A model generated the notes under the pieces. The model was not told where the DNA came from. It saw only the letters and a list, made by a program, of their open reading frames with translations, and ran no database searches. From Paludibacteraceae bacterium (GTDB taxonomy: Bacteria; Bacteroidota; Bacteroidia; Bacteroidales; Paludibacteraceae): a stretch of DNA of 64,000 bases. This document shows positions 2-27,500 of the stretch, piece by piece. A program made the position numbers and the translations under genes. The stretch covers positions 16,388-80,387 of the forward strand of contig JAFXPK010000051.1 in assembly GCA_017527905.1 (NCBI GenBank), written 5' to 3'. How positions within the stretch are numbered: the stretch's first letter is position 1; each line of letters begins with the position of its first letter.

Positions 2-3000
2 ATTCCTATCCGAGAAGTAATAATAGTTCAGCAAAGAGGTATCGATCGTATTCGCCAGATGAATATATTTAGAGATTTCGATCTCCTCCCCGCAGGTCTG
101 CGGCAAAGCGTCGACCTTGATCTCCGGGTTAGGGAAGACCGTCACCTTCACCTCCGCCTTAGTGCTGAGCACACCATCAACCTTATGCTTCTGCGCCACC
201 TTGTAGATCGTCACGCCGACCGTCTCCGTGCTAGGCACAGGGGCGGAAGCCAAAGGAGCGGCATAGTTATCTTCAGGGGAGAACCATTCCAGTTCGTAAT
301 CAATATCCTTGACCTGACCATTGTTCGTGTTAATGCTAGCATTGTTCTCCAACGAGACTGCTTTCGCATGGTGGCAATAGTTCATCGGGAAGGTGTTCGG
401 CATCAGCGCGTCGCTCAAGATAACCGTGATACGCACCGTGTCGCTCAAGCAGCCGCTCTCCTTATGACGTTGTTTGACGAAGTAGGTCAGTTTCACATCC
501 TTATTCTCTTCCCAAGTGTTATCCTTCTTAGGAGAAGGGTCCGTAGTACCCAATTCATTCAGCGCCTCATCGAACCATACCAGTTCATAGTCAGAGTTGT
601 CGGAAGCGGTGACTGCACTTGGGTCTTTCGTCAGAAGAGGATCGAAAGAGCCATCTGCCGCAGCCTCCGATTTCAGGTAATTCACGGAAAGAGAACCCGT
701 CGCAACAGGTACGAAGGTAGTCTTCACAGCGAACTTCGCCGTATCGCTCACGCAGAAACGTCCCGATTCAATCTCATAAGACTCCACCACGCCATACTGC
801 ACCACCGACGTCTGGGTTTGCGCCAACGGAACGCCCGTCACGCTCTGTCCGTCGACCGACCATGAGAAGGAAGACTTTCCTGCGTCGAGGGTGAGCGAAC
901 TGCTCTTCACCTGCAATTGTTCATACTCCTCGCCCTTGCAATACTGAGTGCGGTTCATCGAGATATCAGGAGCAGGGATCTCCACGATGGTCACCGTAAG
1001 CGGCACCTTACCGCTCTCGTTGGTAGGGTTACCCACCTCACGTTGGCTCACGTAGTAGGTTACGGCACCACCCTCGGAGGTATTAGGCGTACGGTCCGAC
1101 TCGGTAGTCAGCTCGTTGCCATCGGCATCGTAATAGACCACCTCCCAAGAGGAGTTGGAGTCCTTCACCTCACTGGCGGTGGCGGAGATTGGCTGCGCCA
1201 CATCATTCAAGCAGTAAGTCACATGATTCGGGACAGGCACGGAGCTACCGCTCACGGTAACAGTGACATAGAACGTATCGCTCACGCAACCCACAGGTTG
1301 GGTGCGATTCACGCCATAAACGATCTTCTTGCCGACATCCTGTGGCGTCGGGGTCGGAGCACTAGACAAAGGTTGACCGTTCTCGTCAAACCAGTTGTAA
1401 GTATATCCGCTCTCCACCTCAACAGCGGAAGGGTCTTGCAGAAGGATGTTCTTATCGAATTGTCCGTTAGCGGCGGTATCGCCCAAGAGATAAGAGACAG
1501 CGCCCGTACCCGTAGGGGCAGAGATTTTCCTCACGGTAAACTTCAGCGTACCCTTTTTCCTGCTCTCGCAACCAGACTTGGAAGTCAATGAATAGGTGTA
1601 GGAGTAGTCGCCCGCCTCAGTTATGGAATTAACGTCCGGTGCGGTTGTCGGGTCTCCGTTCGAGTCGAACCAAGAATAGGCAACGTCCTTCGATAGCATT
1701 TCGTTCATCTCCCTCTCCAGGTCAGAGACATCCGCGTTGCCGGGGCAGAAAGTACCCAGGTCGTAATCAGAGACGACCGGCAGTTTCTCCACCACCAAGG
1801 AAACGACAGGAGCAGGGGAATAGCAAGATGAGTCAGGGCGGGAAAAGACACTTGCCGTATACTCAAATGTGCCAGCGGCGATCGGAGTCACCACACAAGT
1901 GTTATTGGAGGTCTGTTCCGAAATAGGCTGACCATTCTCCTCGAACCTGTAAGTTATATTATTACCGACAGGGCCGGCGGTCAATGTGACAGACTCGCCA
2001 GCACATATCGTATCCCTAGAGATTTGCATAGTAGTATTCGGGAGCGGGCAGTCCTCACCGCAACCGCTGACAGCCTGCGACATGATCTCATTATCCTTGT
2101 GTCCGAGGAGTTTTGTGTAGGCAACATTGATGATGGATTCGGAGCAGTCATCAACCACACCCTTCCAAGAAACCGTATACTTCTTTCCGAAAGGGATAGG
2201 GTTATCGATTCCCTGTTCAAATTTCCAAACGATGGAATCGCCCTGCAGCGCACCTCCATTATCAGCAGAAGAGAAACTAACCTCCGCAGGCTTACGGTCA
2301 ACGATGGTTAAGTCGTAAGCGTAGTCGGTGTGGACATTAATATTAGAGAAGGAAGAAGAACCATTCGACGGAGACTTAAATCCGAAGTAGCCATCTTTCT
2401 CTGTCAAGCCAGAAATAGAAAAGGCAGGTTCTACGGAAGTGTTCTTTGCAATCCAAGCCCGCAAAACATCACCATTCAACTCAATAATCATGTGGAAAGA
2501 ACTCTCTTTCAAAGACAAATTCACATTTTTAAGCAGTCTTGTCTTATCATACATATTAATCACAAGAGCGGCACCTCCATCATAATTCGGGAAAATACCC
2601 AATCGAAGATCATCTCTGAAGTAAACGATTGCCTCCGCATCTCTTTCACTATTTCCCCTATTCAGATCACAGTCCATAGAAACTGTAATATTTGTAGATT
2701 TCGAATACTTGAATTCAGCACTTGCGCCATTCGACAATGAAATCGTCCCATTGGAAATTCTAGGAGATCCACCAGACGTAGTCCAATCAGAAGAATTTGA
2801 CCCCGCATTCTCAAACAAAGCGCCATGAGTCTGTTCATATTCTATTTCATAAACGATATCATCGCCGACCTCATATCTCTCCTTATCCGCAACCTTTTTC
2901 ATTGTGGTTGGCACTATAGGATCAGGCACCTTTTCACAGGTAACAATGATTTGAGCGGTGTCATCCACAGCAGAATTCCTCAGTCCTGAGATCCAAGCAT

Positions 3001-6000
3001 GATTTACTATAACCTCATCAGCCGATACACACGATGCGCCGGAAGGGAATTTAACAACAGCATTATACTTAATTGTTCCTTTCTGACTCACCTGCATCTT
3101 CGGCACATGCCACTCTATAACATCACGGCCATCAGAAGTCTTTGTGGTTTTTATCGTAGCGCCAAAATCCTCAAGAGGGCAGTCATTTAAGAACGAAACG
3201 AACTCCAGACCCAAAGGCAAAGTGTCGCGTACATATACATCCTCGACATCACGGCCAGCGATAGGACCATTACCAAGGATCCTTCTCCACACATATCCGT
3301 CATATTCCTCAACCAACACATTAGGCACTGTAATGGAAGATGATGTACATCCGCAAGTCAACCATTTAGTAATAGGTTCCTCAATCGTTTTCCCCGATTC
3401 GTCTAATCTTTGCCAAGAAGGAGTGATTGGGTAATAATTACCTTCGTCACCGTCTTTATACTTTTCGCTAAATGACCAGTCATCCGTCCAATCCACTTTA
3501 TCCGAGTAATTATTACCATTAACAAGATTAACCACACGCAACGGATAATCTCCTCCCTCATGAATTGTACAATTAGGGTTACCCGTATTCCACGACGTAA
3601 GCATCGTAGTAGTGACAAGCAGTGGTGCGAACTGCATGGAAATACGTTGATTCCACTTCCTCCCAGTAACAGAATCCGTACCCGAGACCACATTCTCATG
3701 CGTCACGACAAATCCCTCTTTGTTACCACCTTCGTAAATTGAAGGAATAACAGCCCATCCATCAGATGAATTTGGAGAAACAACACCTGTCACAACAGGA
3801 TCGTATAAATAATAAGAAATACGATAGTTCCCATAATTTATATACGACTCAACCGCATCGTTAAACAGTCTGAATTTCACTCCCATTTGATTACCCTGAT
3901 CCTCACAAGCCCACGAAACATTTACTCTAGGACGTCCACCGTCTATCCATCCAGCCTCGGAGGAATTCTCAAAATCAATGCTAAAGGTAGCCACATTACC
4001 TGGGTTGATTTTATCCCTATCCGCCTTTTTTTCAATCACCAAAGAACGTTTCAACACATCAACGCAATTTCGTTGCATAGTTGCTGTTCTATAATTCGGA
4101 TATTCATTAGAAACCCATCCCAGACCATTTGAGCATGTTATTTCCGCCGTAGTGCAATAACGACCAGATGCCTGACTACCAATAGACACCGTATAAGACA
4201 CTTGTCCAATCGTTTTCTTAAAATTAGCCCTAGTCACATCCAGCGCAGCACCTTCCTCCTTACCATCGCTATGATAACCACTCACATCACCAATATTCCA
4301 CGTAATAGTATGACTTGCAGCGTCATATACGCCACCGCCCGTAGAAACGACATCAAAATGAGCAGGGACATGTTCTACGATGACCACATCCTTCGCATCC
4401 ACGGACCCATAATTACGGTAATCCAATAAATATGTTATTTCATCTCCTGTATAACAGAATGTCACACTATCTTTTATCGCCCTATAAATCTTCATGTTAG
4501 GCATTGGATTCATTGCGCTTGGCGCAGGATAATTACCCGATGTCACCATCATACCCATTTGACGAGCCCAGCCATGCATATAATTGGAAACTTTACCCAA
4601 ATTACACTCTTGTCCTCTCGGGACATCTATATCAGTGGCATCTCCTTTCGTGTCCCACTTAATATTACACTCTCTATATACCAAACCCATCAATTCATAA
4701 TCCTGACTTCCTACAGCCGCATAAGAACCCGTTCCAGTCTGCATACTCAAAGAGCAATAAAAATCAGCTCCCGACTTTCCCGTATTTGGATCATTTTGCC
4801 AACGAATCGTAGCAGGCCCAGAATAAGGCATATTCTTTACAGATCCATAATCAATACAATGGTTGCCGGCGGCAGGATTCCAATTCGACGGGTCATTCAT
4901 CCAATCCGACAATCTCACAGCGGCATCATACTCGTAAGTGTTTCCGCCTTGCTCCACCTTATGAGTCTTAGAGTTCCACGAATAGCTTGGATTTCCATGC
5001 CACATATAGTTACATATTGTTCTCCAAGAACATCGATAGTCCTCTCCTTGATTGAAATTACTAAATTCGGTACCTGCTTCCGTAGCTTTATAGCTCACCA
5101 ACACGGAATCTTTTTTCCCATCGTCATCATACGTGAATTGCCAATAGCTCACATTCTCTCCCGATTCGAAGACAGAGACCCAACCTGCTGTAGGAATTGA
5201 TTTAGAGCTTTTCTTTATCAACTCGCCTATGAGCCAATCAGATGAGGCTTCTCCTCTACGGAACTGTTCAATCTCCCATGGATCACCCCCCAACTCCTCA
5301 AACAGCTCATAAAATTCCCTGAAATATGCAGGCGCATTGTAATCTATGTGTTGAGTAGTCGCTCCACAAAATTCAGGATATAAGGTGAGTCCGTTTACAT
5401 CCACCATATTGTTACCCGGCAAGCTATATATCTCTTTCGACTCAGAGAAAACAAGAGGATTATTCGCAGTCACAAAACCAGTTTGTTCATTCCACGTATC
5501 ACCGCCCTTAGGATAACCATCCAAACCAATCATACCTGAATTAACACGCATAGGGTTTTCCGTTGGGAACCTTGTACTCAAAGCCACCAGTCCACGAATC
5601 ACTTCTATCATAGCCTCCTTGTACGATATCGGATTTCCACAAGCATCGTTTACGATAGCCCCAGACTCGTCTCTCATGAACTCACCCCACTGTTTGTAAG
5701 CAACATACAACGCTAAAGCAACATCCACATCACCATCCGCAGCCGTATTGCCACCCTCACCTCTATCGGACAACGCAAATGGTCCATACGCATAGGTTGA
5801 AGCAGTGTTCGAACAATCCCTATACTTCTTGGAGCGATTCAGACGCTTATCGTGCGTACACATCCAATAACCATTGAACGTAACCTGATCCGCCATATAA
5901 GCCGCAGCCAACAAAGCGTACCCATCACCTTCCGTACAATCATATGCAGATTTATACGGCGTGCTTATATATTTGATTCCTGCCCAAGACTCTCCCGTAT

Positions 6001-6262
6001 ATTTAAACTCATTAGCATGGACTTGATAGGCATTTCGTATATCCTGCTCCATCTCCGCATGCACCACACCCTCTGGGTTTCTAGTAGCCAAATTGCCTAA
6101 TCGATGGGAGTCTCCATAGGCATACTCCAAAAACTGCGGGAACGGATACGCCGGGTTACCTGAATTGATATGCACAGGCACCGCACTCACTCGAATTGCC
6201 GCCACCATCAACAGAGACAATAGCGCAATCAGCCTTTTATGAATAGTTATAAAGCGAACCAT
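2..6262 (-). CDS. Partial giant secreted protein (3' end beyond window): signal peptide + GH8-like catalytic domain + DUF11-type repeat + LamG-like module + Cys-containing Ig-like repeats
   Basis: This ORF is absent from the supplied track because it has no in-window stop. Manual reverse translation from the ATG at 6262-6260 gives MVRFITIHKRLIALLSLLMVAAIRVSAVPVHINSGNPAYPFPQFLEYAYGDSHRLGNLATRNPEGVVHAEMEQ. That is the same mature N-terminus as the two paralogs downstream. I spot-checked the frame at 6262-6000, 4250-4200, 3415-3400, 2314-2300 and 178-2 and found no stop. GH8-like motifs present: TEGDGYALLAAAYM and AADGDVDVALALYVAYKQWGE. The last in-window residues read KVTVFPNPEIKVDALPQTCGEEIEISKY. 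Confidence 0.8.
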   Translation of the reverse strand, partial: MVRFITIHKRLIALLSLLMVAAIRVSAVPVHINSGNPAYPFPQFLEYAYGDSHRLGNLATRNPEGVVHAEMEQDIRNAYQVHANEFKYTGESWAGIKYISTPYKSAYDCTEGDGYALLAAAYMADQVTFNGYWMCTHDKRLNRSKKYRDCSNTASTYAYGPFALSDRGEGGNTAADGDVDVALALYVAYKQWGEFMRDESGAIVNDACGNPISYKEAMIEVIRGLVALSTRFPTENPMRVNSGMIGLDGYPKGGDTWNEQTGFVTANNPLVFSESKEIYSLPGNNMVDVNGLTLYPEFCGATTQHIDYNAPAYFREFYELFEELGGDPWEIEQFRRGEASSDWLIGELIKKSSKSIPTAGWVSVFESGENVSYWQFTYDDDGKKDSVLVSYKATEAGTEFSNFNQGEDYRCSWRTICNYMWHGNPSYSWNSKTHKVEQGGNTYEYDAAVRLSDWMNDPSNWNPAAGNHCIDYGSVKNMPYSGPATIRWQNDPNTGKSGADFYCSLSMQTGTGSYAAVGSQDYELMGLVYRECNIKWDTKGDATDIDVPRGQECNLGKVSNYMHGWARQMGMMVTSGNYPAPSAMNPMPNMKIYRAIKDSVTFCYTGDEITYLLDYRNYGSVDAKDVVIVEHVPAHFDVVSTGGGVYDAASHTITWNIGDVSGYHSDGKEEGAALDVTRANFKKTIGQVSYTVSIGSQASGRYCTTAEITCSNGLGWVSNEYPNYRTATMQRNCVDVLKRSLVIEKKADRDKINPGNVATFSIDFENSSEAGWIDGGRPRVNVSWACEDQGNQMGVKFRLFNDAVESYINYGNYRISYYLYDPVVTGVVSPNSSDGWAVIPSIYEGGNKEGFVVTHENVVSGTDSVTGRKWNQRISMQFAPLLVTTTMLTSWNTGNPNCTIHEGGDYPLRVVNLVNGNNYSDKVDWTDDWSFSEKYKDGDEGNYYPITPSWQRLDESGKTIEEPITKWLTCGCTSSSITVPNVLVEEYDGYVWRRILGNGPIAGRDVEDVYVRDTLPLGLEFVSFLNDCPLEDFGATIKTTKTSDGRDVIEWHVPKMQVSQKGTIKYNAVVKFPSGASCVSADEVIVNHAWISGLRNSAVDDTAQIIVTCEKVPDPIVPTTMKKVADKERYEVGDDIVYEIEYEQTHGALFENAGSNSSDWTTSGGSPRISNGTISLSNGASAEFKYSKSTNITVSMDCDLNRGNSERDAEAIVYFRDDLRLGIFPNYDGGAALVINMYDKTRLLKNVNLSLKESSFHMIIELNGDVLRAWIAKNTSVEPAFSISGLTEKDGYFGFKSPSNGSSSFSNINVHTDYAYDLTIVDRKPAEVSFSSADNGGALQGDSIVWKFEQGIDNPIPFGKKYTVSWKGVVDDCSESIINVAYTKLLGHKDNEIMSQAVSGCGEDCPLPNTTMQISRDTICAGESVTLTAGPVGNNITYRFEENGQPISEQTSNNTCVVTPIAAGTFEYTASVFSRPDSSCYSPAPVVSLVVEKLPVVSDYDLGTFCPGNADVSDLEREMNEMLSKDVAYSWFDSNGDPTTAPDVNSITEAGDYSYTYSLTSKSGCESRKKGTLKFTVRKISAPTGTGAVSYLLGDTAANGQFDKNILLQDPSAVEVESGYTYNWFDENGQPLSSAPTPTPQDVGKKIVYGVNRTQPVGCVSDTFYVTVTVSGSSVPVPNHVTYCLNDVAQPISATASEVKDSNSSWEVVYYDADGNELTTESDRTPNTSEGGAVTYYVSQREVGNPTNESGKVPLTVTIVEIPAPDISMNRTQYCKGEEYEQLQVKSSSLTLDAGKSSFSWSVDGQSVTGVPLAQTQTSVVQYGVVESYEIESGRFCVSDTAKFAVKTTFVPVATGSLSVNYLKSEAAADGSFDPLLTKDPSAVTASDNSDYELVWFDEALNELGTTDPSPKKDNTWEENKDVKLTYFVKQRHKESGCLSDTVRITVILSDALMPNTFPMNYCHHAKAVSLENNASINTNNGQVKDIDYELEWFSPEDNYAAPLASAPVPSTETVGVTIYKVAQKHKVDGVLSTKAEVKVTVFPNPEIKVDALPQTCGEEIEISKYIHLANTIDTSLLNYYYFSDRN

Positions 6263-6312
6263 GGTTGAATATAATTTCGTTAGACCTACTATAAAATATA
6301 CTTATCAACTTG

Positions 6313-6320
6313 CAAATATA
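6313..6320 (-). promoter_or_regulatory. Bacteroidetes-type -7 box (TATATTTG on minus strand)
   Basis: The plus strand reads caaatata, which matches the TAnnTTTG consensus on the minus strand. It lies about 50 nt upstream of the ATG at 6262. Confidence 0.55.
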
Positions 6321-6481
6321 GCATTTCCCATGGAAGATTAAAATTTTTTAACACACGTTTTTTGAGGAGTGGGGTTCTTTGGGATTTACGACCTTGCATT
6401 TCCGTGGACATCCCACCGAGAGGCACGCCACGCACGTGTCTGTTTGCCAATGAATTACAACAATCAGATAGGCCAGACAAC

Positions 6482-6523
6482 AAAAAAAACGTGTCGACAA
6501 ACGGAGAACCGTTTGTCGACACG
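6482..6523 (-). terminator. Rho-independent terminator of the 6548-12913 gene
   Basis: A perfect 15-bp stem (cgtgtcgacaaacgg / ccgtttgtcgacacg) is followed on the minus strand by a run of 8 T. Confidence 0.8.
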
Positions 6524-6547
6524 AGGTTATTCTATAAGTGGCGAGCA

Positions 6548-9500
6548 CTAATCCTTTACAGCCTTCACCATCTTTTGGTCACCGACCACGTAGACGCCAG
6601 GCATCAAACCGTCAAGCGCCTTTTCTCTCAAGACTTGCTTCTTCAGCATGATACCCAACATGTTGTAGACATCCACATATGGGCTTTCCGATGCCACGGA
6701 AGGCAACGAAGTAGCCTCCTTGACGTAAAGCACCAACGGAGCGGAGTTGACAGACTCCTTGTCGCTCGTGACATGGCTCGCGCAACGAATCGTATCCGAC
6801 TCGGTCGCCACCACCCTACACAGGTAAGAGAAGCTGTTCTTCTCGCCCGTATTCATACTATTCAACGTGTAGGTCACGATACCCGAATAGTTCTTAGCAC
6901 CATCAGGCAGAGCCTTGGCAGAAGCCTCAGCGCGTCCGTTTGGACGAGGATTCGTCGTGGCGCTTGCAGGTTGGTATGTCGCGGTTGTGTTCTCATCCAT
7001 GAACTTAACGAACTCGAAGCCCAACGTGATGGTATCTGTCACCGTGACACTCTTCGCCACAACGCCCTTCAGCGGACTATCTCCGAGGATCTTACGCCAT
7101 GTGTATCCATCGAACTCCTCCACCAAAACATTTTCCGTGACCGTCGACACCTCTTCACAAGCCGATTTCATAAGACGGTCCACCGGTTGAGGTTCCTCAG
7201 AAGATTGATAGGAAGGAGTGACAGGGTAATAATTTCCATTCTGCTCATCCTGCGGGATCTGAGAGAATCCAGTTCCCCAATCGATATCATTATAACGAGC
7301 ATCATTGGTATTAATCACCACCCGCATAGGGGATCTTGGTCCATCATACAAAGGAGAGGAGAGACCAAAATGCGACGACAAGAAGGTTGTAGAAGCGGCC
7401 TGCACATGAGGGAATTGGATAGTACGCATGAATGAGCTATCCGCCAGCATCTCATCCTTAAAGACGATCCCGTTTCCTGAAGGCAAGCCCTCTGAGAATT
7501 CAACCATATAACTCAAATCGACAGAACGCGACGTGTCACCGAAGAAGAGGTCAGCAGGAATCGTACGATATTTGCCATTGAACACTGTTATACGATAGTT
7601 GCCATAATCGATAGGTTCCACCGCATCATTATAGAGTCTCAACATCAAAGTGCTCATTGTCTTATCTTTCTTTTCCGCCAATGCCACATTCACGCCCAGA
7701 CGACCGCCCGTCAAAGCAGGAACGGTATCATTCGAAAGACTGACATTGAAGGTGACGAGATCACCCGCGGCAACCTCCGTGACATCCGAAATCTTCGCTA
7801 CCGACAGGTTGGTAGGGATCACGTCGACAGCGTTGCGCTGCATCGTCGCGGTGACATAGTTAGGATAACCATCCGTCTTCGATCCCACGCCATTGGAGCA
7901 GGAGATCTCCGCCGAAGCCTGGTAACGACCCTTCGCATCCTCCTTCGCCACGCAACGGTAGCTAACCTCACCGATTGTCTTTGACAAGTTCGGTGCGGAG
8001 AAGTCGATCGAAGCGCCCTCCATCTCATCGCTCTTGAAACCAGCGAGCTTGCTCAACGTCCACGCCACCGTATGGGTCGCGGCGTCATACTTTCCTCCGT
8101 TGTCCGCATCCAAGAAGATGAAGCCGTCAGGCACGCTCTCCTCGATGAGAACGTTCTGCGCATCCACGGAACCGTAGTTACGGTAAGAGAGCAGATAGGT
8201 GATTGTATCACCGACATGGCAGTAAGAGACGCTGTCCTTCACCGCCCTATAGATCTTCAGGTTAGGCTGAGCCTTCATTTGGGAAGGTGCGGCATAGTTG
8301 CCAGTGAGCGCCATCAATCCCAATTGGCGGAACCAACCCTCCATATATCTTGGAACAATCCGACCGTCGCGCGACTCCTCTGCCACATCACAACTTTCGT
8401 AGATGGCACCGAACAAGTCGCCCATCAAATCATAATCCTGACCACCGATGGCCGCAAAGGAGAAAGCGCCCTTCTGGCGAACAAGCAAACTATATAGACC
8501 AACAGTGGATGCCGCTCCTGTCATAGGGTCTATCTGCAGGGACAATGTCTTTGGACCAGTGACAGAAAGATTGCTATTGCCATACGTCACACATGAATTC
8601 TCCGAAGTCCAGTGCGCAGGGTCACGCATGTAATCGGACAACCTTACCGCAGCATCATACTCGTAGGTATTGGTCTTGCTCTCCACCTGATGGGTAACCG
8701 GGTTCCATGAGTATGCTGGGGAACCATGCCATACATAATTGCTGATGGTACGCCAAGGCGTACGGAAATCTTCACTCGCATCAAAAGGAGAATACGAAGT
8801 CGTGTCGCCATTGTTGTTCACGGTATGCCAACCAGCAGTCGGCAGGGCTTTCTCATTTTTGCCGATCAGGTTACCTATCAACCAATCGGAAGAGGCCTCT
8901 CCGCGACGGAACTGCTCCGCCTCCCATGCGTTCGTCTCTCCCAACTCGCTGGAGAGAGAGTCCAGCAAATCGTGGAACTCCCGGTAATAGGCAGGGGCGC
9001 AATAGTCCGTATGTTGTCTTGTTTCACCGACAAATTCAGGAGTAACAGCAACACCACCGATCTGAATGTAGTTCTTCTCCTGGGATGCCCATTCCGTCAA
9101 CTCGTTCCATGTGTTGCCACCCTTCACATAACCATCCAGACCGATCAGACCCGAAACAACACGCATAGGGGTTTCCGATGGGAACCTCGTACTCGTCGCC
9201 ACCAATCCACGAATCACATTGATCATCTCCTGCTTATAGCTGATCGGTTCGCCGCAAGCGTCCTTGACGATTTCTCCCTTGTCGTTCCGCATGAACTCAC
9301 CCCACTGCTTGTAGGCGACATAGAGGGCAAGAGCCACATCGGCATCACCGTCCGCAGCCGAGTTGTCCGGATTATTATCTGAAAGGATAAGATCTCCATA
9401 CTGGGTGTTAGGCGCATTATCGGTACAATCCATGTAACGTTTCGTATGCACACGTCGTTTGTCATGCGTGCACATCCAATAGCCATCGAACGTCGCCTTG

Positions 9501-12500
9501 TCAGCCATATAGGCGGCGGCAAGCAACGCGTAACCATCACCCTCGGTGCAATCGTATGCCGCCTTATAAGGGGTCCAAATATATTTTATACCCTGATATT
9601 CTTCACCCGTATATGCGAACTCGTTCGCATGCAGCTGGTAGGCTTCGCGGATATACTTCTCCATCTCCGCATGAGAGACGCCCTCCGGAACGTTGGTTCC
9701 GAGGTTTCCACCACACGCATACTCCAAGAATTGAGGGAAAGGATAGGCAGGATTGCCTGAATTGATATGAACCGTGACAGGGTCGCCTTCCACCGGAACG
9801 TCCTTGAGTTTGAAAGTAGTAGATGACGGAGCGGAGTTAACCGACGCATAATTATCCGACGCATGGCTTCCGCGCCATACTAATTGTCCACTATTCGCCA
9901 CACATCTACATTTGTAGGAAAGGCTTACCTGAGAGGAAGAATCCTGGGAGAGTGAATAAGTCACAATTCCCGCATAAGGTTTACCCTCAGCCGGATGGTA
10001 CGTGGCGGAAGTGTTCTCATCCGTAAAGGAAACGAACTCAAAACCTAGCGGAACCGTATCGGTCAATGTCAGCAAGCCACCATTTCTCAAAGGGCTGTCG
10101 CCAAGTATCTTACGCCACACGTATCCATCAAATTCCTCCACCAAGACAGTTTCCGTGACATCCGACACCTCATCACAAGCAGAGCGGATATAACGGGTCA
10201 CAGGTTGTGACACACCAGAAGTTTGGAATGAAGGGGAAATTGGATAATATGCCCCCTCCGCATTATTTTCATCTTTAAGCAACTGAGAGAAGCCCGAGTT
10301 CCAATCAAACCCTTCTAAGGATGGAGAAACAACACTGAACCCAAATTCAAAATCCAGAGGAGCCCTTGTTCCCTCACATGAGAAATAATCGTCATCCCAC
10401 ATCTGTTCCAGATAACCCATAGAAGTGGCTAACGTATGAGGGAATTGGAGGGTAAACATGTAGGTGCTATCAGACAGCGTATCAGTCGCAAAGACAAACT
10501 CATCAACATTATCACATTTTGCTCGACCATTCTGCGTGCCATGAAGGTCACCGATAATTTTTCTCAACTCCACCACATCTTTCAAATCTTTAAAGAACGT
10601 GATTCTATAGTTGCCATTATCGATATATGGCTCCACCGCATCGTTATAAAGTCGGGCACGCATAATTAACTGATAATTCGATTCCATAGTTTTAGCCATC
10701 GTCACATTCACACCAGAACGACCGCCAGTCAAACAAGGGACCGAATCCATAGAGATGTTAACGCTAAACGTAGCGACATCACCCTTGGACAACTCCGACA
10801 CATCAACAGTCTTTGAGAGAGATATACCGTTCGGAATCACATCGATATGGTTGCGTTGCATCGTCGCCGTAACATAATTCGGGTAATCGTTTGTCTTCGA
10901 ACCCGAGCCATTGGAACAGGAGATCTCCGCGGTGGAGTGGTAACGTCCCTTCGCTCCGTTCTTCGCCACACAACGGTAGCTAACCTGACCGATCGTCTTC
11001 GAGAGGTTCGGTGCGGAGAAATCGATTGAAGCTCCCTCCATTCCATCGCTCTTGAATCCGGCGAGTTTGCTCAAAGACCATTTCACCGTATGTGTCGCGG
11101 CGTCATAAACTCCATCAAGGTCAGCATTCAAGAAATCGAAGCCAGCAGGGATGGTGTCAACAATAACAACATTCTGCGCATCTACGGAACCATAGTTACG
11201 GAAAGAGAGGAGATAAGTGACCGTGTCACCCGTATGGCAATATGACATGCTATCCTTCACAGCCTTATAGATCTTCAGGTTTGCCTTCGGATTCATTTGG
11301 GAAGGGGCGGCGTAGTTGCCCGTCAATGCCATCAAGCCCATCTGGCGGAACCAGCCACGCATATATCTAGGGATCAATTGACCATCATCCGATTTCCCTT
11401 CTATCAGCATGTTTTCATAGATAACATTGTAGAGGTCACCCATCAAATCATAATCCTGGACGCCAATAGCAGCAAAGACAGAGGCGCCCTGCTGCATACA
11501 ATCATGTCTCCCGTAGAAATCTACCGGTTCACCCGTTATCGGATTATTTAGCAAAGGCATCGCTCTTGGTCCTGTATATGGAATATTACAAGGAGCAGGG
11601 GATGCTGGTGTAACGCAAACAGATTTGTCGGTCCAGTGCGCAGGATCACGCATGAAATCGGACAACCTCACCGCCGCATCGTACTCGTGGCTATTTGATC
11701 CATTCACAACCTGATGGGTAACCGGATTCCACGAATAGGCAGGGTTGCCATGCCATACATAATTGCTGATAGTACGCCAAGGAGTACGGAAATCCTCACC
11801 CGTGTTAAAAGAAGAATACGAAGTCGTGTCACCATTTTTGTTCACGGTATGATTACCTGAAGTAGGCAGAGCCTTATCGCTTTTACCGATCAAGTCACCG
11901 ATCAGCCAATCGGAAGAGGCCTCTCCACGGCGGAACTGCTCCGCCTCCCATGCGTTCGTCTCGCCCAACTCGCTGGAGAGGGAATCCAGCAGATCGTGGA
12001 ACTCCCTGTAATAGGCAGGCGCACAATAGTCCGTATGTTGTTGCACCCCACCAGCAAATGCAGGAATGATATTTACACCATCCATCTGGATGTAGTTCCC
12101 CTCTTGGGATGCCCAATTCGTCAACTCGCCCAATGTGTTACCACCTTTCACGTAACCATCCAAGCCTATCAAACCCGTAATAACCCTAAGAGGATTCCCC
12201 AAAGGAGAGAGTGTTGAATCAACAGACGCCTTCACCAAGCCGCGGATCACATTGATCAACTCCTGCTTATAGCTGATTGGCTCGCCACAAGCGTCCCTGA
12301 CAATTTCGCCCTTATCGTTACGCATGAACTCACCCCACTGCTTGTAGGCGACATAGAGAGCGAGGGCTATATCGACATCTCCATCCGCCGCAGAGTCATA
12401 ACTTCCTCCGTTACCATCTTTGGGGGATATACCAGCAATGGTGAATTCTCCAAAACGGTAGTCAGGCACATTATCAGTACAATCCTTGTATCGTTTCGTG

Positions 12501-12913
12501 CGCACACGACGTTTGTCATGCGTGCACATCCAATAGCCGTCGAACGTCGGTTTATCAGCCATATAGGCGGCGGCAAGCAACCCATAGCCGTCCGATTCGG
12601 AAAATTCAGCATAAAAAGGCTCGGCTAACTCGATATATTTTATACCCTCATGCTCTTCACCCGTATACGTGAACTCAAGCGCATGCTGCTGATAAGCCTT
12701 ACGGATAAAATGCTCCATCTCCGCATGAGTGACACCCTCCGGGTTCTTGGTACCTAAGTTTCCGCCACACGCATACTCCAAGAACTGAGGAAACGGATAG
12801 GCGGGATTGCCTGAATTGATATGGACAGGAACGGCGCCCATACTAACCGCTGCAAAAAACAGGAGAGGCAAAAACGCGATTGCCCTCTTTTTAATACTTA
12901 CAATAAAGACCAT
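6548..12913 (-). CDS. 2121-aa secreted protein with two tandem [GH8-like + DUF11-type repeat] units and one T9SS C-terminal sorting domain
   Basis: The track ORF is 6548-13174. I place the start at the ATG at 12913 (MVFIVSIKKRAIAFLPLLFFAAVSMGAVPVHINSG), which gives a signal peptide. GH8-like motifs occur twice: SESDGYGLL/TEGDGYALL, AADGDVDIALALYVAYKQWGE, DYCAPAYYREF, EDFRTPWRTISNYVW and GWFRQ.GLMALTGNYAAP. DUF11-like segments: GDTVTYLLSFRNYGSVDAQNVVIVDTIP. The C-terminus (PYVDVYNMLGIMLKKQVL...GVYVVGDQKMVKAVKD) resembles a T9SS CTD. Confidence 0.85.
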   Translation of the reverse strand: MVFIVSIKKRAIAFLPLLFFAAVSMGAVPVHINSGNPAYPFPQFLEYACGGNLGTKNPEGVTHAEMEHFIRKAYQQHALEFTYTGEEHEGIKYIELAEPFYAEFSESDGYGLLAAAYMADKPTFDGYWMCTHDKRRVRTKRYKDCTDNVPDYRFGEFTIAGISPKDGNGGSYDSAADGDVDIALALYVAYKQWGEFMRNDKGEIVRDACGEPISYKQELINVIRGLVKASVDSTLSPLGNPLRVITGLIGLDGYVKGGNTLGELTNWASQEGNYIQMDGVNIIPAFAGGVQQHTDYCAPAYYREFHDLLDSLSSELGETNAWEAEQFRRGEASSDWLIGDLIGKSDKALPTSGNHTVNKNGDTTSYSSFNTGEDFRTPWRTISNYVWHGNPAYSWNPVTHQVVNGSNSHEYDAAVRLSDFMRDPAHWTDKSVCVTPASPAPCNIPYTGPRAMPLLNNPITGEPVDFYGRHDCMQQGASVFAAIGVQDYDLMGDLYNVIYENMLIEGKSDDGQLIPRYMRGWFRQMGLMALTGNYAAPSQMNPKANLKIYKAVKDSMSYCHTGDTVTYLLSFRNYGSVDAQNVVIVDTIPAGFDFLNADLDGVYDAATHTVKWSLSKLAGFKSDGMEGASIDFSAPNLSKTIGQVSYRCVAKNGAKGRYHSTAEISCSNGSGSKTNDYPNYVTATMQRNHIDVIPNGISLSKTVDVSELSKGDVATFSVNISMDSVPCLTGGRSGVNVTMAKTMESNYQLIMRARLYNDAVEPYIDNGNYRITFFKDLKDVVELRKIIGDLHGTQNGRAKCDNVDEFVFATDTLSDSTYMFTLQFPHTLATSMGYLEQMWDDDYFSCEGTRAPLDFEFGFSVVSPSLEGFDWNSGFSQLLKDENNAEGAYYPISPSFQTSGVSQPVTRYIRSACDEVSDVTETVLVEEFDGYVWRKILGDSPLRNGGLLTLTDTVPLGFEFVSFTDENTSATYHPAEGKPYAGIVTYSLSQDSSSQVSLSYKCRCVANSGQLVWRGSHASDNYASVNSAPSSTTFKLKDVPVEGDPVTVHINSGNPAYPFPQFLEYACGGNLGTNVPEGVSHAEMEKYIREAYQLHANEFAYTGEEYQGIKYIWTPYKAAYDCTEGDGYALLAAAYMADKATFDGYWMCTHDKRRVHTKRYMDCTDNAPNTQYGDLILSDNNPDNSAADGDADVALALYVAYKQWGEFMRNDKGEIVKDACGEPISYKQEMINVIRGLVATSTRFPSETPMRVVSGLIGLDGYVKGGNTWNELTEWASQEKNYIQIGGVAVTPEFVGETRQHTDYCAPAYYREFHDLLDSLSSELGETNAWEAEQFRRGEASSDWLIGNLIGKNEKALPTAGWHTVNNNGDTTSYSPFDASEDFRTPWRTISNYVWHGSPAYSWNPVTHQVESKTNTYEYDAAVRLSDYMRDPAHWTSENSCVTYGNSNLSVTGPKTLSLQIDPMTGAASTVGLYSLLVRQKGAFSFAAIGGQDYDLMGDLFGAIYESCDVAEESRDGRIVPRYMEGWFRQLGLMALTGNYAAPSQMKAQPNLKIYRAVKDSVSYCHVGDTITYLLSYRNYGSVDAQNVLIEESVPDGFIFLDADNGGKYDAATHTVAWTLSKLAGFKSDEMEGASIDFSAPNLSKTIGEVSYRCVAKEDAKGRYQASAEISCSNGVGSKTDGYPNYVTATMQRNAVDVIPTNLSVAKISDVTEVAAGDLVTFNVSLSNDTVPALTGGRLGVNVALAEKKDKTMSTLMLRLYNDAVEPIDYGNYRITVFNGKYRTIPADLFFGDTSRSVDLSYMVEFSEGLPSGNGIVFKDEMLADSSFMRTIQFPHVQAASTTFLSSHFGLSSPLYDGPRSPMRVVINTNDARYNDIDWGTGFSQIPQDEQNGNYYPVTPSYQSSEEPQPVDRLMKSACEEVSTVTENVLVEEFDGYTWRKILGDSPLKGVVAKSVTVTDTITLGFEFVKFMDENTTATYQPASATTNPRPNGRAEASAKALPDGAKNYSGIVTYTLNSMNTGEKNSFSYLCRVVATESDTIRCASHVTSDKESVNSAPLVLYVKEATSLPSVASESPYVDVYNMLGIMLKKQVLREKALDGLMPGVYVVGDQKMVKAVKD

Positions 12914-12960
12914 AACTGAATGTTTTTCGTTTAACTTTCCATATGTAAATTCACAAGTGA

Positions 12961-12968
12961 CAAATATA
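12961..12968 (-). promoter_or_regulatory. -7 box TATATTTG (minus strand)
   Basis: caaatata lies 48 nt upstream of the ATG at 12913. This supports the shorter start. Confidence 0.55.
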
Positions 12969-13164
12969 AACATTGTTTTGTAAAGAATAGCATCGTCATT
13001 AAAAAATTTAAATATTTTTAACGCATATTTTCGCAATATGCTCGTTATAATACAATTAGGCAAGCCGGAACATATCCAGCATATCCATAGATAGACGAGC
13101 TTGGCCAGGAATGTGTCAACGACGCATGGGGGAGTACGCTTTCCGCAAAGGACATCCGGCAGGG

Positions 13165-13197
13165 CAAAAAACAATCAGCACCCATAAGGTGCTGATT
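13165..13197 (-). terminator. Rho-independent terminator of the 13247-16489 gene
   Basis: A 10-bp stem (aatcagcacc / ggtgctgatt) is followed on the minus strand by gtttttt. Confidence 0.65.
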
Positions 13198-13246
13198 GCA
13201 TTTTAATTACAAAAGGATTTACCGCCCACGGCAAAATTTCCACGGA

Positions 13247-16200
13247 TTACTCCTTGTCATTTTTTATCATCTTCTTGTCACCGACCACATAGACGCCCGG
13301 CATCAATCCCTTCAGCGCCTCTATCTCGAGAACATGCTTTCTCACGAGAACGCCTAGGCTGTTATAGACATCCACATACGGATTGTCCGACGGCACAAGG
13401 GAGACCCCTGTAAACTCTTTGTCGACAATGATCAACGATGCGGAGCTGACTGACTCCTTGTCGCTCGTGGCATGGCTTCCGCATGCGATCTTTTTGGCGT
13501 CACCTCCTACATACTTGCATTGATAGGAGAATCCATCCTTCGTGCCCAAGTCCATGCTTCCCGCGGAGTAGGTCACAATACCCGCATAAGGCTTACCATC
13601 AGCAGGTTGGAACGTCGCAGAAGTTTTCTCGTCCGTAAACTTGATGAACTCGAAGCCCAACGGAATGGTGTCGGTCACCGTCACATTCTTCGCCACATCA
13701 CCGTTCACGAACGGGCTATTGCCAAGAATCTTACGCCACACATAGCCATCGAACTCCTCCACCAAGACATTCTTCGTGAGTTTCGACACGCCGTCGCAAG
13801 CCGTCCGCAAGAGGCGGTCCACCGGCTGAGGCTCCTCCGAGGATTGGTAGGAAGGCGTGACAGGGAAATAATAGCCGTCGTCACTGTCAGAATTCAACTG
13901 GGAGAAGCCCGCTTTCCAATCGAGGGACTTCCAACTAGCGTCATAGAAACGAGCCCCCACACGCAACGGGTACCTTGTCCCCTCGCAATTGAACTTAGCG
14001 GCTCCGGCCATCTCGTTCAGGTAATAAGTGGAGGCAGCCAAAGCATGAGGGAATTGCACGGAGAACATACGGGTGCCATCCGCCAAGACCTCATCCTTAA
14101 AGACAAAATCGTTTGCGTTCGAAGCCATCGTCGCACCATTCTGCGTGCCCTCGATCAGGTCGAACGAGCATTGGAGGTCGGTCGCGTCCTTCAAATCCTT
14201 GAAGACCGTGACACGATAGTTACCATTGTCGATGTAAGGCTCCACCGCATCATGGTAGATCTTGAACTTCAGGACATATTGCGCGCCCTTCTCCTCGTCG
14301 GCCACTGCCACGTTGACGTCCGGTCGTCCGCCCGTCAGCCAAGGAATCGTGTCGTTCGAGAGGTTCACGCTGAAGGTGACGACATCGTTCTTCTCCACCT
14401 CCGTGACATCCGACGTCTTCGTGACGGTGAGGTTCGTAGGGATCACCTCAATCAGATTGCGCTGCATCGTCGCCGTGACATAGTTCGGGTAGAGGTTCGT
14501 CTTCGAGCCCAATCCGTTGGCGCAGGAGATCTCAGCGGTGGCCTGGTAGCGACCAGCCGCGCCGCTCTTCGCCACGCATCGGTAAGAGACCGTCCCGATT
14601 GTCTTCGAGAGGTTCGGAGCGGAGAAATCGATCGCCTCGCCCTCCATATTATCGCTCTTCAGACCCGCCAATTGGTCCATGGTCCACGTCAACGTATGGG
14701 TCGCGGCATCGTACGTTCCGCCATTGTCCGCATCCAAGAAATAGAAATCGGTCGGCAACTTCTCAACGATAACGACGCTTTGCGCATCCACAGAACCATA
14801 GTTACGGTAGGAGAGCAGGTAGGTGATGGTATCCCCCACGTGGCAGCAGGACATGCTATCCTTCAGCGCCCTATAGATCTTCAGGTTAGGCTGAGCCTTC
14901 ATTTGGGAAGGCGCAGGATAGTTGCCCGTCAAGGCCATCAAACCCGTTTGACGGAACCATCCGCTCATATAGTTGGAGACCCATTGTTTATCGGTTGTTT
15001 GACCTTTGGCGTCCCAGTTCTCGTAGATCACATTGAACAAGTCGCCCATCAGATCATAATCTTGTGCACCGATTGCGGCGAAAGCGGCGGCGCCCTTCTG
15101 CATACCCAGTGCGGAAGTGTTCGCGTCATCGAGGGTAGCGCCCGTCATCGGATCGATCTGCCAACCCATCATCCTCGGGCCCGAATAAGGGATTTTCTTA
15201 TCACCCTTCGTGTAGCAAGTGGATCCGGATCCCCAATGGGCAGGGTCGCGCATGTAGTCGGACAATTTCACAGCCGCATCGTATTCATATTTGTTCGCAC
15301 CCTCCTCGACTTGGTGGGAGACCGGGTTCCAAGAGTAGTCCGGGTTTCCGTGCCAGACATAGTTGCTGATGGTACGCCAAGGGCAACGATAGTCCTCACC
15401 ATCCTGGAAGTTGGAGTAGGTGGTTATGCTACCGTCACGGTTACAAGTGTTCCAGCCAGCGGTAGGCAAAGAGGTTTTGTTCTTACCGATCAGATCACCG
15501 ATCAGCCAGTCGGAAGAGGCTTCGCCACGGCGGTATTGCTCAGCCTCCCACTCCGCGGTGGCACCGATCTCATCCTTCAGGGAAAGGATCAGGTCGTGGA
15601 ACTCACGGAAATAGGCGGGCGCGCAATAGTCGATATGCTGGCGTTGTCCGCCATCCGAAGCGAACAGAGGATAGACAGGAACACCATTCCATTGGATGTA
15701 GTTGCTCTTCTGCAAAGCCCAGTCCGTCAACTCAGCCCAAGTATCGCCACCCCTCATATAGCCGTCCAGACCGATCAGGCCCGTATTGACGGGGCGAGGG
15801 TTCATCTCAGGGTTACTGGTGCTCATCGCCACCAGGCCACGCACCACATTGATCATCTCCTGCTTATAGCTGATAGGGTTTCCGCAAGCATCCTTGACGA
15901 TCTCACCCTTATCGTTCCGCATGAACTCGCCCCACTGCTTATAGGCGACATAGAGTGCGAGCGCCACATCGACGTCACCGTCCGCCGCCGTGTTGCCGCC
16001 CTCGTCCGCACCGTCACTGATGGCGAATTCACCATACTGATAATTAGGCGCATTATCGGTACAATCCTTGTATCGTTTCGTATGCACGCGACGTTTGTCG
16101 TGCGTGCACATCCAGTAGCCGTCGAACGTCACCTTATCCGCCATGTAGGCGGCGGCCAACAAAGCGTAGCCATCGCCCTCGGAGCAGTCGTAGGCGGCCT

Positions 16201-16489
16201 TGTAAGGGGTCCATATATATTTTATGCCCTCATACTCATCTTTCGTATATTCGAACTCATTCGCGTGCTGTTGGTAAGCCGTACGGATGAGCTGCTCCAT
16301 CTCGGCATGGGTCAGGCCCTCCGGGTTATTCGTTCCCAGGTTTCCGCCACACATATACTCCAAGAACTGGGGGAAAGGATAGGCAGGATTACCCGAGTTG
16401 ATATGGACAGGGACGGCGGCGAAGGAAGCCAACGTCCCGAAGCACAAACCGGCGCACAACGCCAACGATTTCTTTAGATAACGATTCAT
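13247..16489 (-). CDS. 1080-aa secreted GH8-like glycoside hydrolase with DUF11-type repeats and T9SS C-terminal sorting domain
   Basis: The track ORF begins at a GTG at 16498. The first ATG is at 16489 (MNRYLKKSLALCAGLCFGTLASFAAVPVHINSGNPAYPFPQFLEY). GH8-like motifs: SEGDGYALLAAAYM, AADGDVDVALALYVAYKQWGE, DYCAPAYFREF, EDYRCPWRTISNYVW and GWFRQTGLMALTGNYPAP. DUF11-like segment: GDTITYLLSYRNYGSVDAQSVVIVEKLP. CTD-like end: NPYVDVYNSLGVLVRKHVL...GVYVVGDKKMIK. Confidence 0.88.
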   Translation of the reverse strand: MNRYLKKSLALCAGLCFGTLASFAAVPVHINSGNPAYPFPQFLEYMCGGNLGTNNPEGLTHAEMEQLIRTAYQQHANEFEYTKDEYEGIKYIWTPYKAAYDCSEGDGYALLAAAYMADKVTFDGYWMCTHDKRRVHTKRYKDCTDNAPNYQYGEFAISDGADEGGNTAADGDVDVALALYVAYKQWGEFMRNDKGEIVKDACGNPISYKQEMINVVRGLVAMSTSNPEMNPRPVNTGLIGLDGYMRGGDTWAELTDWALQKSNYIQWNGVPVYPLFASDGGQRQHIDYCAPAYFREFHDLILSLKDEIGATAEWEAEQYRRGEASSDWLIGDLIGKNKTSLPTAGWNTCNRDGSITTYSNFQDGEDYRCPWRTISNYVWHGNPDYSWNPVSHQVEEGANKYEYDAAVKLSDYMRDPAHWGSGSTCYTKGDKKIPYSGPRMMGWQIDPMTGATLDDANTSALGMQKGAAAFAAIGAQDYDLMGDLFNVIYENWDAKGQTTDKQWVSNYMSGWFRQTGLMALTGNYPAPSQMKAQPNLKIYRALKDSMSCCHVGDTITYLLSYRNYGSVDAQSVVIVEKLPTDFYFLDADNGGTYDAATHTLTWTMDQLAGLKSDNMEGEAIDFSAPNLSKTIGTVSYRCVAKSGAAGRYQATAEISCANGLGSKTNLYPNYVTATMQRNLIEVIPTNLTVTKTSDVTEVEKNDVVTFSVNLSNDTIPWLTGGRPDVNVAVADEEKGAQYVLKFKIYHDAVEPYIDNGNYRVTVFKDLKDATDLQCSFDLIEGTQNGATMASNANDFVFKDEVLADGTRMFSVQFPHALAASTYYLNEMAGAAKFNCEGTRYPLRVGARFYDASWKSLDWKAGFSQLNSDSDDGYYFPVTPSYQSSEEPQPVDRLLRTACDGVSKLTKNVLVEEFDGYVWRKILGNSPFVNGDVAKNVTVTDTIPLGFEFIKFTDEKTSATFQPADGKPYAGIVTYSAGSMDLGTKDGFSYQCKYVGGDAKKIACGSHATSDKESVSSASLIIVDKEFTGVSLVPSDNPYVDVYNSLGVLVRKHVLEIEALKGLMPGVYVVGDKKMIKNDKE

Positions 16490-16538: not shown

Positions 16539-17156
16539 TCATTTCAAATAAAGGATGGACTCGGGGCCCATATTGAACAACAGATCCAGCACACTCATGT
16601 CAGGCACGAAGCCGAACTTCTGGTCGAAGACCTGATAATAAGGCCTCAACGGGCGGGTTGGCTCTGTTTTGGGAGAGAAAGCCTCCCGCAAATCTTGGGA
16701 AGAGGGTTCCGTCAGATAATCGTCCGTCAAGGAGAGCTCCGTCTTCAGTCCGATCAGCTCCATCACGACCCGCATCAGCTCCATGTTCAGGTCGATGAGG
16801 AACTCCGTCTTCTTCGTGTAGAAAGGCTCGAAATCATCCTTATAGTATTCAAAGAAAGGCGAAGAATTATACGCCGAAGCGATCGCCCGCCAGTGCACCT
16901 GCTGCCAGTTCTCCACGTAAGCGATCCGCAAATCCTTCACGCACATCTTACCACCCGTATTGATCACCGGCACGGAGAGGTCCATCACCCCGTTGCTCGT
17001 CAGTATCCTACAGCGGTTGCGATAGGTCTGTTTGTGATAATGGTCACATTGCTCGATGCATGCATGGCCGGCCGCAGCGACCGCCTGGTAATAGGAGACG
17101 GGGCCCAAGTAGGCGGAAGAGAGCAAAACAGAACTTTGCATAGCGTCATCTGCCAT
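16539..17156 (-). CDS. WbqC family protein
   Basis: The 205-aa product contains SSAYLGPVSYYQAV...HYHKQTYRNRCRILTSNGVMDLSVPV, which is typical of the WbqC family. Its start overlaps the stop of the upstream gene by 11 nt. Confidence 0.75.
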   Translation of the reverse strand: MADDAMQSSVLLSSAYLGPVSYYQAVAAAGHACIEQCDHYHKQTYRNRCRILTSNGVMDLSVPVINTGGKMCVKDLRIAYVENWQQVHWRAIASAYNSSPFFEYYKDDFEPFYTKKTEFLIDLNMELMRVVMELIGLKTELSLTDDYLTEPSSQDLREAFSPKTEPTRPLRPYYQVFDQKFGFVPDMSVLDLLFNMGPESILYLK

Positions 17157-26635: not shown

Positions 26636-26730
26636 ATTTCTGTTGTTTAATGTTTTATGTGTTTCTATGATTATGCTACTAAGTAACAACTTTTTTTTCA
26701 AATATCGTTGATGTTTCGAGGAGAATTTAG

Positions 26731-27235: not shown

Positions 27236-27244
27236 GTTAACCGC

Positions 27245-27285
27245 AAAAAAAAGCCTCAATTGACATCGTATCGTCCATTGAGGCT
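27245..27285 (-). terminator. Rho-independent terminator downstream of the small-peptide ORFs
   Basis: The stem is agcctcaat / attgaggct, followed on the minus strand by tttttttt. Confidence 0.6.
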
Positions 27286-27449: not shown

Positions 27450-27500
27450 AATCGTACGTTTTTTAATGGTTAATCACTATGTTTCGTTTACTCATTTTTT

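Follow-up and report, generated by a model that had tools for sequence, protein, structure and literature searches.

We analysed a 64,000-nucleotide stretch of DNA from a rumen Paludibacteraceae bacterium that is uncultured (contig JAFXPK010000051.1), referred to below as the window, and within it an array of three consecutive minus-strand genes, here named A, B, and C, which together encode four paralogous modules of ~510 amino acids (aa) that resemble glycoside hydrolase family 8 (GH8). For the array, we report a predicted fold, the conservation of residues, the domains present, the distribution of the family, and the terminators. The reading we consider probable is that A, B, and C encode Sec-exported, divergent GH8 glycanases on stalks of DUF11 and immunoglobulin (Ig)-like domains, most likely secreted through the type IX system (T9SS), and that the array would have arisen by old tandem duplication together with a fusion that produced gene B.

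A first-pass annotation of this DNA had described three minus-strand genes whose mature proteins start with the same sequence, and this was borne out by translation and a motif scan, with gene C truncated at the window edge. The N-termini of A, B, and C were judged, by eye only, to be Sec signal peptides ending just before (A)VPVHINSGNPAYPFPQFLEY (VPVHINSG), and the second unit of gene B opens with VTVHINSG in the middle of the gene. For gene B, a start at the ATG of 12913 yields a normal signal peptide; a longer TTG-initiated open reading frame (ORF) reaching to 13174 overlaps the terminator of A. The genes and their parts are laid out as follows (CTD, C-terminal sorting domain of T9SS cargo).

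Gene A, 13247-16489, minus strand: 1080 aa by translation, with a signal peptide, a GH8-like module, DUF11/Ig-like domains, and a short CTD-like tail
Gene A, GH8-like module, 14885-16414, minus strand: aa 26-535
Gene A, codons of the putative catalytic residues, minus strand: E104 at 16178-16180, D170 at 15980-15982, D366 at 15392-15394
Gene A, post-catalytic region, 13385-14884, minus strand: aa 536-1035, a DUF11 domain and then more β-sandwich domains
Gene A, C-terminal tail, 13250-13384, minus strand: ~45 aa, conserved, with the pattern VDVYNxLGxLVxKxV...ALxGLxPGVYVVG, similar to the distal half of type A sorting domains of the T9SS
Gene B, 6548-12913, minus strand: 2121 aa, two complete GH8 plus DUF11/Ig units in a single polypeptide, followed by a short tail
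Gene B, GH8-like modules, minus strand: B1 at 11279-12832, B2 at 8261-9784
Gene B, short tail, 6551-6685, minus strand
Gene C, 2-6262, minus strand: >2087 aa, with its 3' end beyond the window edge
Gene C, GH8-like module, 4496-6181, minus strand
Gene C, DUF11 region, ~2813-4495, minus strand: followed by unassigned sequence and Ig-like (CHU_C-associated) repeats

The modules are divergent members of the GH8 clade

When the whole proteins were compared with the Pfam GH8 model PF01270 (gathering threshold [GA], 24 bits), all three scored above threshold, with 40.5 bits for A, 62.9 bits for B (in two stretches), and 31.8 bits for C. A single module searched against the sequences of the PDB retrieved GH8 enzymes only, weakly (E 6e-4), and a profile of 30 family members reached the β-1,3-1,4-glucanase 5xd0 with an E-value of 1e-18 and the cellulase CelA with 5e-14, aligning with the latter in three pieces across the whole barrel. 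An AlphaFold model of the A module, built on the family alignment, had a mean predicted local distance difference test score (pLDDT) of 87.2 and a predicted template modeling score (pTM) of 0.92. The top 28 Foldseek matches of this model (E ≤0.001) included 25 GH8-family structures and two chains of CPF_2247, which was deposited as an α-amylase; the matches had E-values down to 3e-12 and target-normalised TM scores of 0.55-0.73.

The conserved sequence blocks that the first-pass annotation had likened to those of GH8 were recovered by the motif scan at equivalent positions in A, B1, B2, and C, with one correction: the B1 module reads SESDGYGLL instead of the (S/T)EGDGYALL given there. The motifs and the protein positions at which they were found are listed here, together with the DUF11-type motif that follows each module.

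VHINSGNPAYPFPQFLEY: A28, B30, B1048, C30
(S/T)E(G/S)DGY: A103, B105, B1123, C110
AADGD.D(V/I)ALALYVAYKQWGE: A168, B175, B1186, C174
DY(C/N)APAY(F/Y)REF: A287, B295, B1303, C307
ED(F/Y)R..WRTI: A365, B373, B1381, C407
GW(F/A)RQ.G.M: A510, B520, B1526, C564
GD(T/E)(I/V)TYLL, DUF11-type: A552, B562, B1568, C606

In CelA, E95 is the catalytic acid and D278 the base of GH8a type, subfamily GH8a being defined by a general base Asp at the D278 position. The profile alignment paired all three catalytic-site residues of CelA with residues of the module: E77 (E104 of A) with E95; D143 (D170 of A) with D152, the AADGD block lying on ATDAD of CelA; and D339 (D366 of A, in ED(F/Y)R) with D278, which is chain index 246 of 1CEM (chain index + 32 gives the residue number). 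An hhalign comparison of the C-terminal half of the module with CelA (94% probability, E 8.5e-8) likewise placed D339 on D278. Within the family, E77 and D143 were each conserved in 30/30 sequences and D339 in 26/27, and the Glu, Asp, and Asp are kept in all four modules of the window. Position 2 of the A-[ST]-D-[AG]-D signature is Ala instead of Ser or Thr in 18/30 sequences, and an N-terminal PFPQ motif is common to the modules and the GH8b chitosanase/lichenase enzymes.

Several observations weigh against a straightforward assignment to GH8. Of the 341 positions of the PF01270 profile, only 47-141 are matched; solved GH8 enzymes share just 12-17% identity with the modules; compared with solved GH8 domains, the modules carry ~130 extra aa; and searches of the literature, of sequence databases, and of the PDB turned up neither a characterised nor a structurally solved member of the clade. 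Because of the partial Pfam match, the low identity, and the extra residues, specificity cannot be carried over from known GH8 enzymes. Nevertheless, the GH8 relationship proposed at first pass held up: the Pfam scores exceed GA in all three proteins, the fold matches of the predicted (α/α)6 barrel are near-exclusively GH8, and the alignments pair the conserved Glu and the two Asp residues with those of CelA. From model and alignment, we conclude that the modules are predicted to be genuine but divergent GH8-clade hydrolases.

As such, the N-terminal ~510-aa module would form an (α/α)6 barrel that cuts a β-linked glycan, presumably by an inverting mechanism. The Glu of (S/T)EGDGY would serve as the general acid and the Asp of ED(F/Y)R as a general base of GH8a type, while the sugar in subsite -1 would be held by the first AADGD Asp. 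Alternatively, the GH8-like domains could be non-catalytic heads, binding carbohydrate or acting as adhesins on giant surface proteins. The catalytic domain is a minority of the polypeptide and the rest looks like an adhesin stalk, and comparable giant GH8 proteins of Cytophaga have roles described as unknown (PMC6247017). We nevertheless consider such a function very unlikely, as invariance or near-invariance of three catalytic-site residues throughout the family and in all four window modules would be unexpected for a pure binding domain.

For enzymes of this kind, the most likely substrate would be a plant β-1,4- or mixed-linkage glucan or a xylan. They might instead be active GH8-type enzymes on a non-plant substrate, either chitosan or a fungal wall glycan or a bacterial exopolysaccharide, in the manner of a GH8b chitosanase or of BcsZ. 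In line with this, the best matches include the GH8b chitosanase ChoK (1v5c, 7cju) and the lichenase 5xd0, with which the PFPQ motif is common; relatives occur in marine Aquimarina and in Chitinispirillaceae/Chitinivibrionales; and a WbqC-like gene of polysaccharide-biosynthesis type adjoins gene A. On the other hand, under the subfamily definition above, having Asp at the position of CelA D278 is typical of GH8a (cellulases/xylanases), the neighbours in this herbivore-gut organism include GH9 and GH16 proteins of T9SS type, and BcsZ-type enzymes are small periplasmic proteins of bcs operons, which are absent here. On balance, we regard a non-plant substrate as rather unlikely and favour plant glycans.

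DUF11 and Ig-like domains follow each module

DUF11 repeats had been noted behind each GH8-like module, and the Pfam model PF01345 (GA, 24.6 bits) recognised them in all three proteins, with 55.6 bits for A (three stretches), 92.8 bits for B (two stretches), and 40.3 bits for C. The related model TIGR01451 gave 42.4 bits for A and 56.1 bits for B, and 22.6 bits for C, just under the cut-off of 24. These DUF11/TIGR01451 matches fall in the ~500 aa behind each module. Gene C additionally encodes an Ig_7 (CHU_C-associated) domain (35.2 bits in Pfam), and Pfam at E ≤1 returned nothing beyond Ig_7 in its extension.

The post-catalytic region of A was modelled as all-β (pLDDT 70), and its fold matches in the PDB were only to generic Ig-like stalks from adhesins and integrins (e.g., PrgB, AgI/II, and integrin legs); the comparison of this model with the PDB gave no match resembling a carbohydrate-binding module (CBM) or an enzyme. 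The DUF11/Ig-like domains may form a stalk or binding region that would hold the enzyme away from the cell surface.

T9SS export is likely for the family and gene C, and plausible for genes A and B

All three proteins had been proposed to be T9SS cargo, a claim that stands at the level of the family and is weaker for A and B themselves. The C-termini of 46 long family members matched TIGR04131 (type B CTD) in 23 cases and TIGR04183 (type A CTD) in 17, that is, 40/46 (87%) ended in a recognised T9SS domain. The orthologues of C, with 62-69% identity and ~2860 aa, end in a TIGR04131 type B domain, which in the 67% identical orthologue at locus L030 scored 93.9 bits against a cut-off of 35. These C-termini make T9SS export likely for the family and for gene C, where the type B domain would direct passage through the outer membrane. 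Three points count against this: the C-terminus of C itself lies outside the window, so that its sorting domain is taken from the orthologues; in L030, the gene after the C orthologue is not PorP/SprF-like but encodes adenylosuccinate lyase; and no T9SS machinery gene was found within the 64-kb window. The neighbour of the C orthologue at locus L031 had no NCBIfam match.

A and B end in a tail of ~45 aa with the consensus VDVYNxxGxLLKxQV....ALxGLxxGVYVVG, which is kept in proteins that are otherwise ~45-60% identical and has eight invariant columns in 18 diverse tails from orthologues and paralogues. In hhalign, the tail aligned with type A CTDs (90%, E 1.6e-6) over just 34 columns, corresponding to the distal half; among the CTDs used were the full Por_Secre_tail domains of the window's two GH9 proteins. 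It also aligned with the tail of an unrelated leucine-rich repeat (LRR) protein of the window (95%, E 4e-8) and with that of a window GH16 protein (50%, E 1.6e-4). Together, the similar tails on window proteins suggest a lineage-specific family of CTD variants.

Against export of A and B by this route, neither whole protein matched TIGR04183, and when the isolated tails were searched, A gave no match and B scored 13.9 bits (E 0.039), below the cut-off of 23; PF18962 matched neither tail. Taking the canonical type A CTD as a seven-stranded Ig-like β-sandwich of ~70-100 aa, a tail of ~45 aa is too short for the complete fold, and this part of the model had a pLDDT of only 30-41. It could be hypothesized that A and B are not T9SS cargo, their tail being a degenerate remnant or having some other function, for instance as a small hairpin for binding, and that the proteins stay in the periplasm or leave by another exit, e.g., in outer membrane vesicles. 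The failure of every curated CTD model to reach threshold for A and B, the alignment of only ~34 columns to type A CTDs, and the low confidence of the tail model all speak for this, as does structural work that considers an intact β1-β7 sandwich important for export (PMC11285876). Set against it are the strong conservation of the tail among proteins that differ at about half of their positions overall, the presence of similar tails at the ends of unrelated secreted proteins of the window, and the 87% of sampled family members with recognised T9SS domains at the same position. We therefore hold it doubtful that A and B bypass the T9SS; their export by this system is plausible, with the type-A-like tail as the putative signal for passage through the outer membrane.

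Two BspA-type LRR/Listeria-Bacteroides-repeat proteins are encoded at 51334-54978 (plus strand) and 57729-60119 (minus strand) and have tails of the form VEVYxLNGxLV...GVYVVK...VKVEL. Two further tandem paralogues, at 40482-42536 and 42577-44604 (both minus strand), end in DUF6383.

The array is probably built from old tandem duplicates, one pair of which appears fused

The modules are 50-72% identical at the amino acid level and the post-catalytic regions 36-59%. DNA identity is 60-87%, with repeat families in register at a spacing of ~3.0-3.6 kb. A DNA block recurring in all four modules had been reported at first pass, and the 18-mer CATGAACTCRCCCCACTG was indeed present in exactly four copies (5675, 9290, 12323, and 15920), compared with 0 expected; it is the coding sequence of the invariant QWGEFM.

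From this block, recent duplication or concerted evolution had been proposed. The shared 18-mer and the registered DNA repeats speak for such an origin, or for ongoing gene conversion. However, the 18-nt block merely encodes the invariant hexapeptide, and besides the DNA and protein identities given above, identity at four-fold degenerate sites is no more than 50-57% among A, B1, and B2, and 28-32% between these and C. The longest exact DNA match between paralogues is 45 nt, and A, B, and C orthologues are each conserved separately in other metagenome-assembled genomes (MAGs). Given this synonymous-site divergence, we reject recent duplication and ongoing gene conversion, which are extremely improbable as the source of the four modules; by sequence comparison, the paralogues are best described as old tandem duplicates.

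In gene B, unit 1 passes directly into the VTVHINSG of the second unit, and neither a CTD nor a stop codon nor a signal peptide separates them. No second two-module ORF was found among 75 related loci, where A-like genes of ~1050 aa are common. Based on the junction and on these loci, gene B is best explained by two A-like genes having fused in frame, an event that would have dropped one sorting tail and one signal peptide. An orthologue of B (P0057) is 95% identical over 2131 aa.

The modules belong to a widespread family found mostly in herbivore-gut Bacteroidales

Orthologues of A that are 92-96% identical occur in rumen Paludibacteraceae MAGs, and the A module alone is 94-97% identical at the protein level to sequences from yak, buffalo, and cattle rumen MAGs of this family; the 92-97% orthologues lie on unannotated MAG contigs. 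The order A-B-C was found in two MAGs, RGIG10174 (A then B at locus L003, B then C at L030) and RGIG9770 (B then C at L040), and in several other close relatives a C-like gene directly follows A.

More broadly, the family comprises 259 representative clusters (at 50% identity) at E ≤1e-3, and 132 of these at E ≤1e-30; nearly all of the latter are 1000-4500 aa long with the module directly after the signal peptide. Species-representative genomes contained 330 matching stretches, mostly in herbivore-gut Bacteroidales, and the family is also present in Chitinispirillaceae/Chitinivibrionales and in cultured marine Aquimarina. In GenBank, MAG relatives of ≤60% identity are named either 'glycosyl hydrolase family 8' or 'DUF11 domain-containing protein'. 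Paludibacteraceae of the rumen and hindgut are abundant, though uncultured.

The architecture had been called uncharacterised, and the novelty this implied was overstated in view of the 132 clusters, the 330 stretches, the GH8 labels in GenBank, and published precedents (PMC6247017). Rather, the array is an uncharacterised GH8 clade in a familiar architecture, ordinary for fibre-degrading Bacteroidota, with two modest curiosities, namely, the fused two-module gene B and the half-length sorting tail. A more far-reaching proposal, which we put forward with considerable reserve, is that the clade may constitute a distinct GH8 subfamily, characterised by ~130-aa insertions, a GH8b-type PFPQ head combined with a GH8a-type base, and several giant paralogues per genome in herbivore-gut Paludibacteraceae, perhaps with a substrate or action new for GH8. 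As part of the same proposal, the conserved tail of 45 aa on the ~1050-aa paralogues might act as a minimal T9SS signal that is specific to this lineage and has about half the length of a canonical CTD.

Since the clade is found in hundreds of species-level genomes, expression of a single module could assign a function to many giant GH8/DUF11 proteins, and the short tail lends itself to testing what part of a CTD the T9SS requires. Current understanding is not overturned by these results.

Transcription signals and coding properties of the array

Each gene had been thought to be its own transcription unit, with terminators after A and B. Strong hairpins followed by T-runs were indeed present at those places, and motifs matching the Bacteroidota -7 consensus TAnnTTTG precede B and C.

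Terminator-like hairpin with T8, 6490-6523, minus strand: 15 pairs, 9 of them GC; 25 nt past the stop of B
Terminator-like hairpin with T5, 13171-13199, minus strand: 13 pairs, 6 of them GC; ~48 nt past the stop of A
TATATTTG, 6313-6320, minus strand: ~50 nt upstream of the ATG of C, a consensus match only
TATATTTG, 12961-12968, minus strand: ~48 nt upstream of the ATG of B, a consensus match only

The TATATTTG motif is not enriched across the window (37 found compared with 32 expected). Based on the terminators and these boxes, which are consensus matches only, separate transcription of B and C is plausible. For gene A, no TAnnTTTG box was found in the ~50-bp gap upstream of it. The WbqC-like (polysaccharide-biosynthesis-associated) gene at 16539-17156 (minus strand) ends ~50 bp upstream of A, and as neither a terminator nor a -7 box lies between the two, A may be cotranscribed with it.

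GC content at third codon positions is 0.70 in A, similar to housekeeping genes of the window, 0.55 in B, and 0.48 in C; such differences among paralogues might reflect expression level or evolutionary history. A 1001-aa antisense ORF at 13472-16477 (plus strand), in exact codon register with gene A, was rejected as a gene and is considered a shadow ORF. It is accounted for by TTA, CTA, and TCA being nearly absent from the codons of A (0, 2, and 1 of 1081, respectively), and it is not kept in orthologues, where the stop-free runs span 114-975 codons.

The window contains T9SS-type glycanases and no Sus-like locus

A Pfam scan of ORFs of ≥182 aa found no SusD and no SusC/SusD pair in the 64-kb window, which agrees with the earlier placement of the array outside any Sus-like locus. 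The sole TonB-type barrel, encoded at 33791-36334, belongs to the OMP_b-brl_3 type and lacks a neighbouring SusD. A GH16 protein encoded at 23207-24799 (plus strand) has a half-length CTD-like tail that scored 20.8 bits with Por_Secre_tail, under the GA of 27, while tandem GH9 paralogues at 28389-30248 and 30594-32468 (both minus strand) carry full Por_Secre_tail domains of 36-37 bits. With these GH16 and GH9 tails and no SusC/D, the window reads as a cluster of T9SS-type glycanases outside any polysaccharide utilization locus (PUL), which fits a non-PUL strategy of secreted enzymes. Such tandem GH8, GH9, and GH16 proteins of T9SS type point to the secreted or surface-enzyme strategy of Cytophaga and 'Candidatus Paraporphyromonas' and not to the Sus strategy.

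No convincing ORF lies in the 1.7 kb at 26702-28388. This stretch carries a direct duplication of 203 nt (26768-26970 and 26990-27192, 96% identical) that includes 28-nt tandem units, and a 59-nt inverted partial copy, in which 27120-27178 pairs with 28240-28298. Rfam and tRNA scans of the window, this stretch included, found nothing.

Comparison with known systems

Among characterised enzymes, CelA of Clostridium (Acetivibrio) thermocellum (GH8a; 1CEM/1KWF) shares with the window modules the predicted (α/α)6 barrel, with a target TM of 0.70 and with E95, D152, and D278 aligned. The two differ in that identity is 16-17%, the window modules exceed it in length by ~130 aa and contain several β-rich insertions, and the window proteins lack a dockerin and have DUF11/Ig domains and T9SS-type tails instead. 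The best fold and profile matches were two GH8b enzymes, ChoK of Bacillus sp. K17 (1V5C, 7CJU) and the β-1,3-1,4-glucanase of Paenibacillus sp. X4 (5XD0). Shared with both are the N-terminal PFPQ, SEGxGY, and an (A/T)DGDxDIA...KQWG block; identity is 12-14%, and the window family differs from them in keeping Asp at the GH8a base position.

At the level of architecture, a close likeness is to Cytophaga hutchinsonii, in which CHU_1075, CHU_2852, and both CHU_3440 and CHU_3441, as well as proteins of Sporocytophaga myxococcoides, are giant GH8-Ig-CTD proteins that have been detected in proteomes and have unknown roles (PMC6247017). Like the window proteins, they have an N-terminal GH8 domain occupying less than half of their length and then Ig-like folds; they end in a T9SS sorting domain, as is proposed for the window proteins, and they are encoded outside PULs, some as adjacent paralogues (PMC6247017). 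The GH8 domain of CHU_1075 is reported to be 32% identical to CelA (PMC6247017) and is thus canonical, unlike the window clade with its 12-17% identity to known GH8. No Cytophaga or Sporocytophaga protein was present among the relatives of the clade that were retrieved, and when a Cytophagaceae MAG member served as the query, MAG proteins alone came back. A two-module protein and the 45-aa tail are not described for Cytophaga or Sporocytophaga (PMC6247017).

Finally, 'Candidatus Paraporphyromonas polyenzymogenes' is likewise an uncultured rumen Bacteroidales organism that uses T9SS-tagged, often multicatalytic glycoside hydrolases, e.g., GH5-GH5 and GH8-CBM6-GH11, instead of Sus-like loci (PMC5831590). 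It belongs to another bacterial family and differs in its enzyme families and architectures, its GH8 being joined to a CBM6 and a GH11 xylanase and not to DUF11 domains (PMC5831590).

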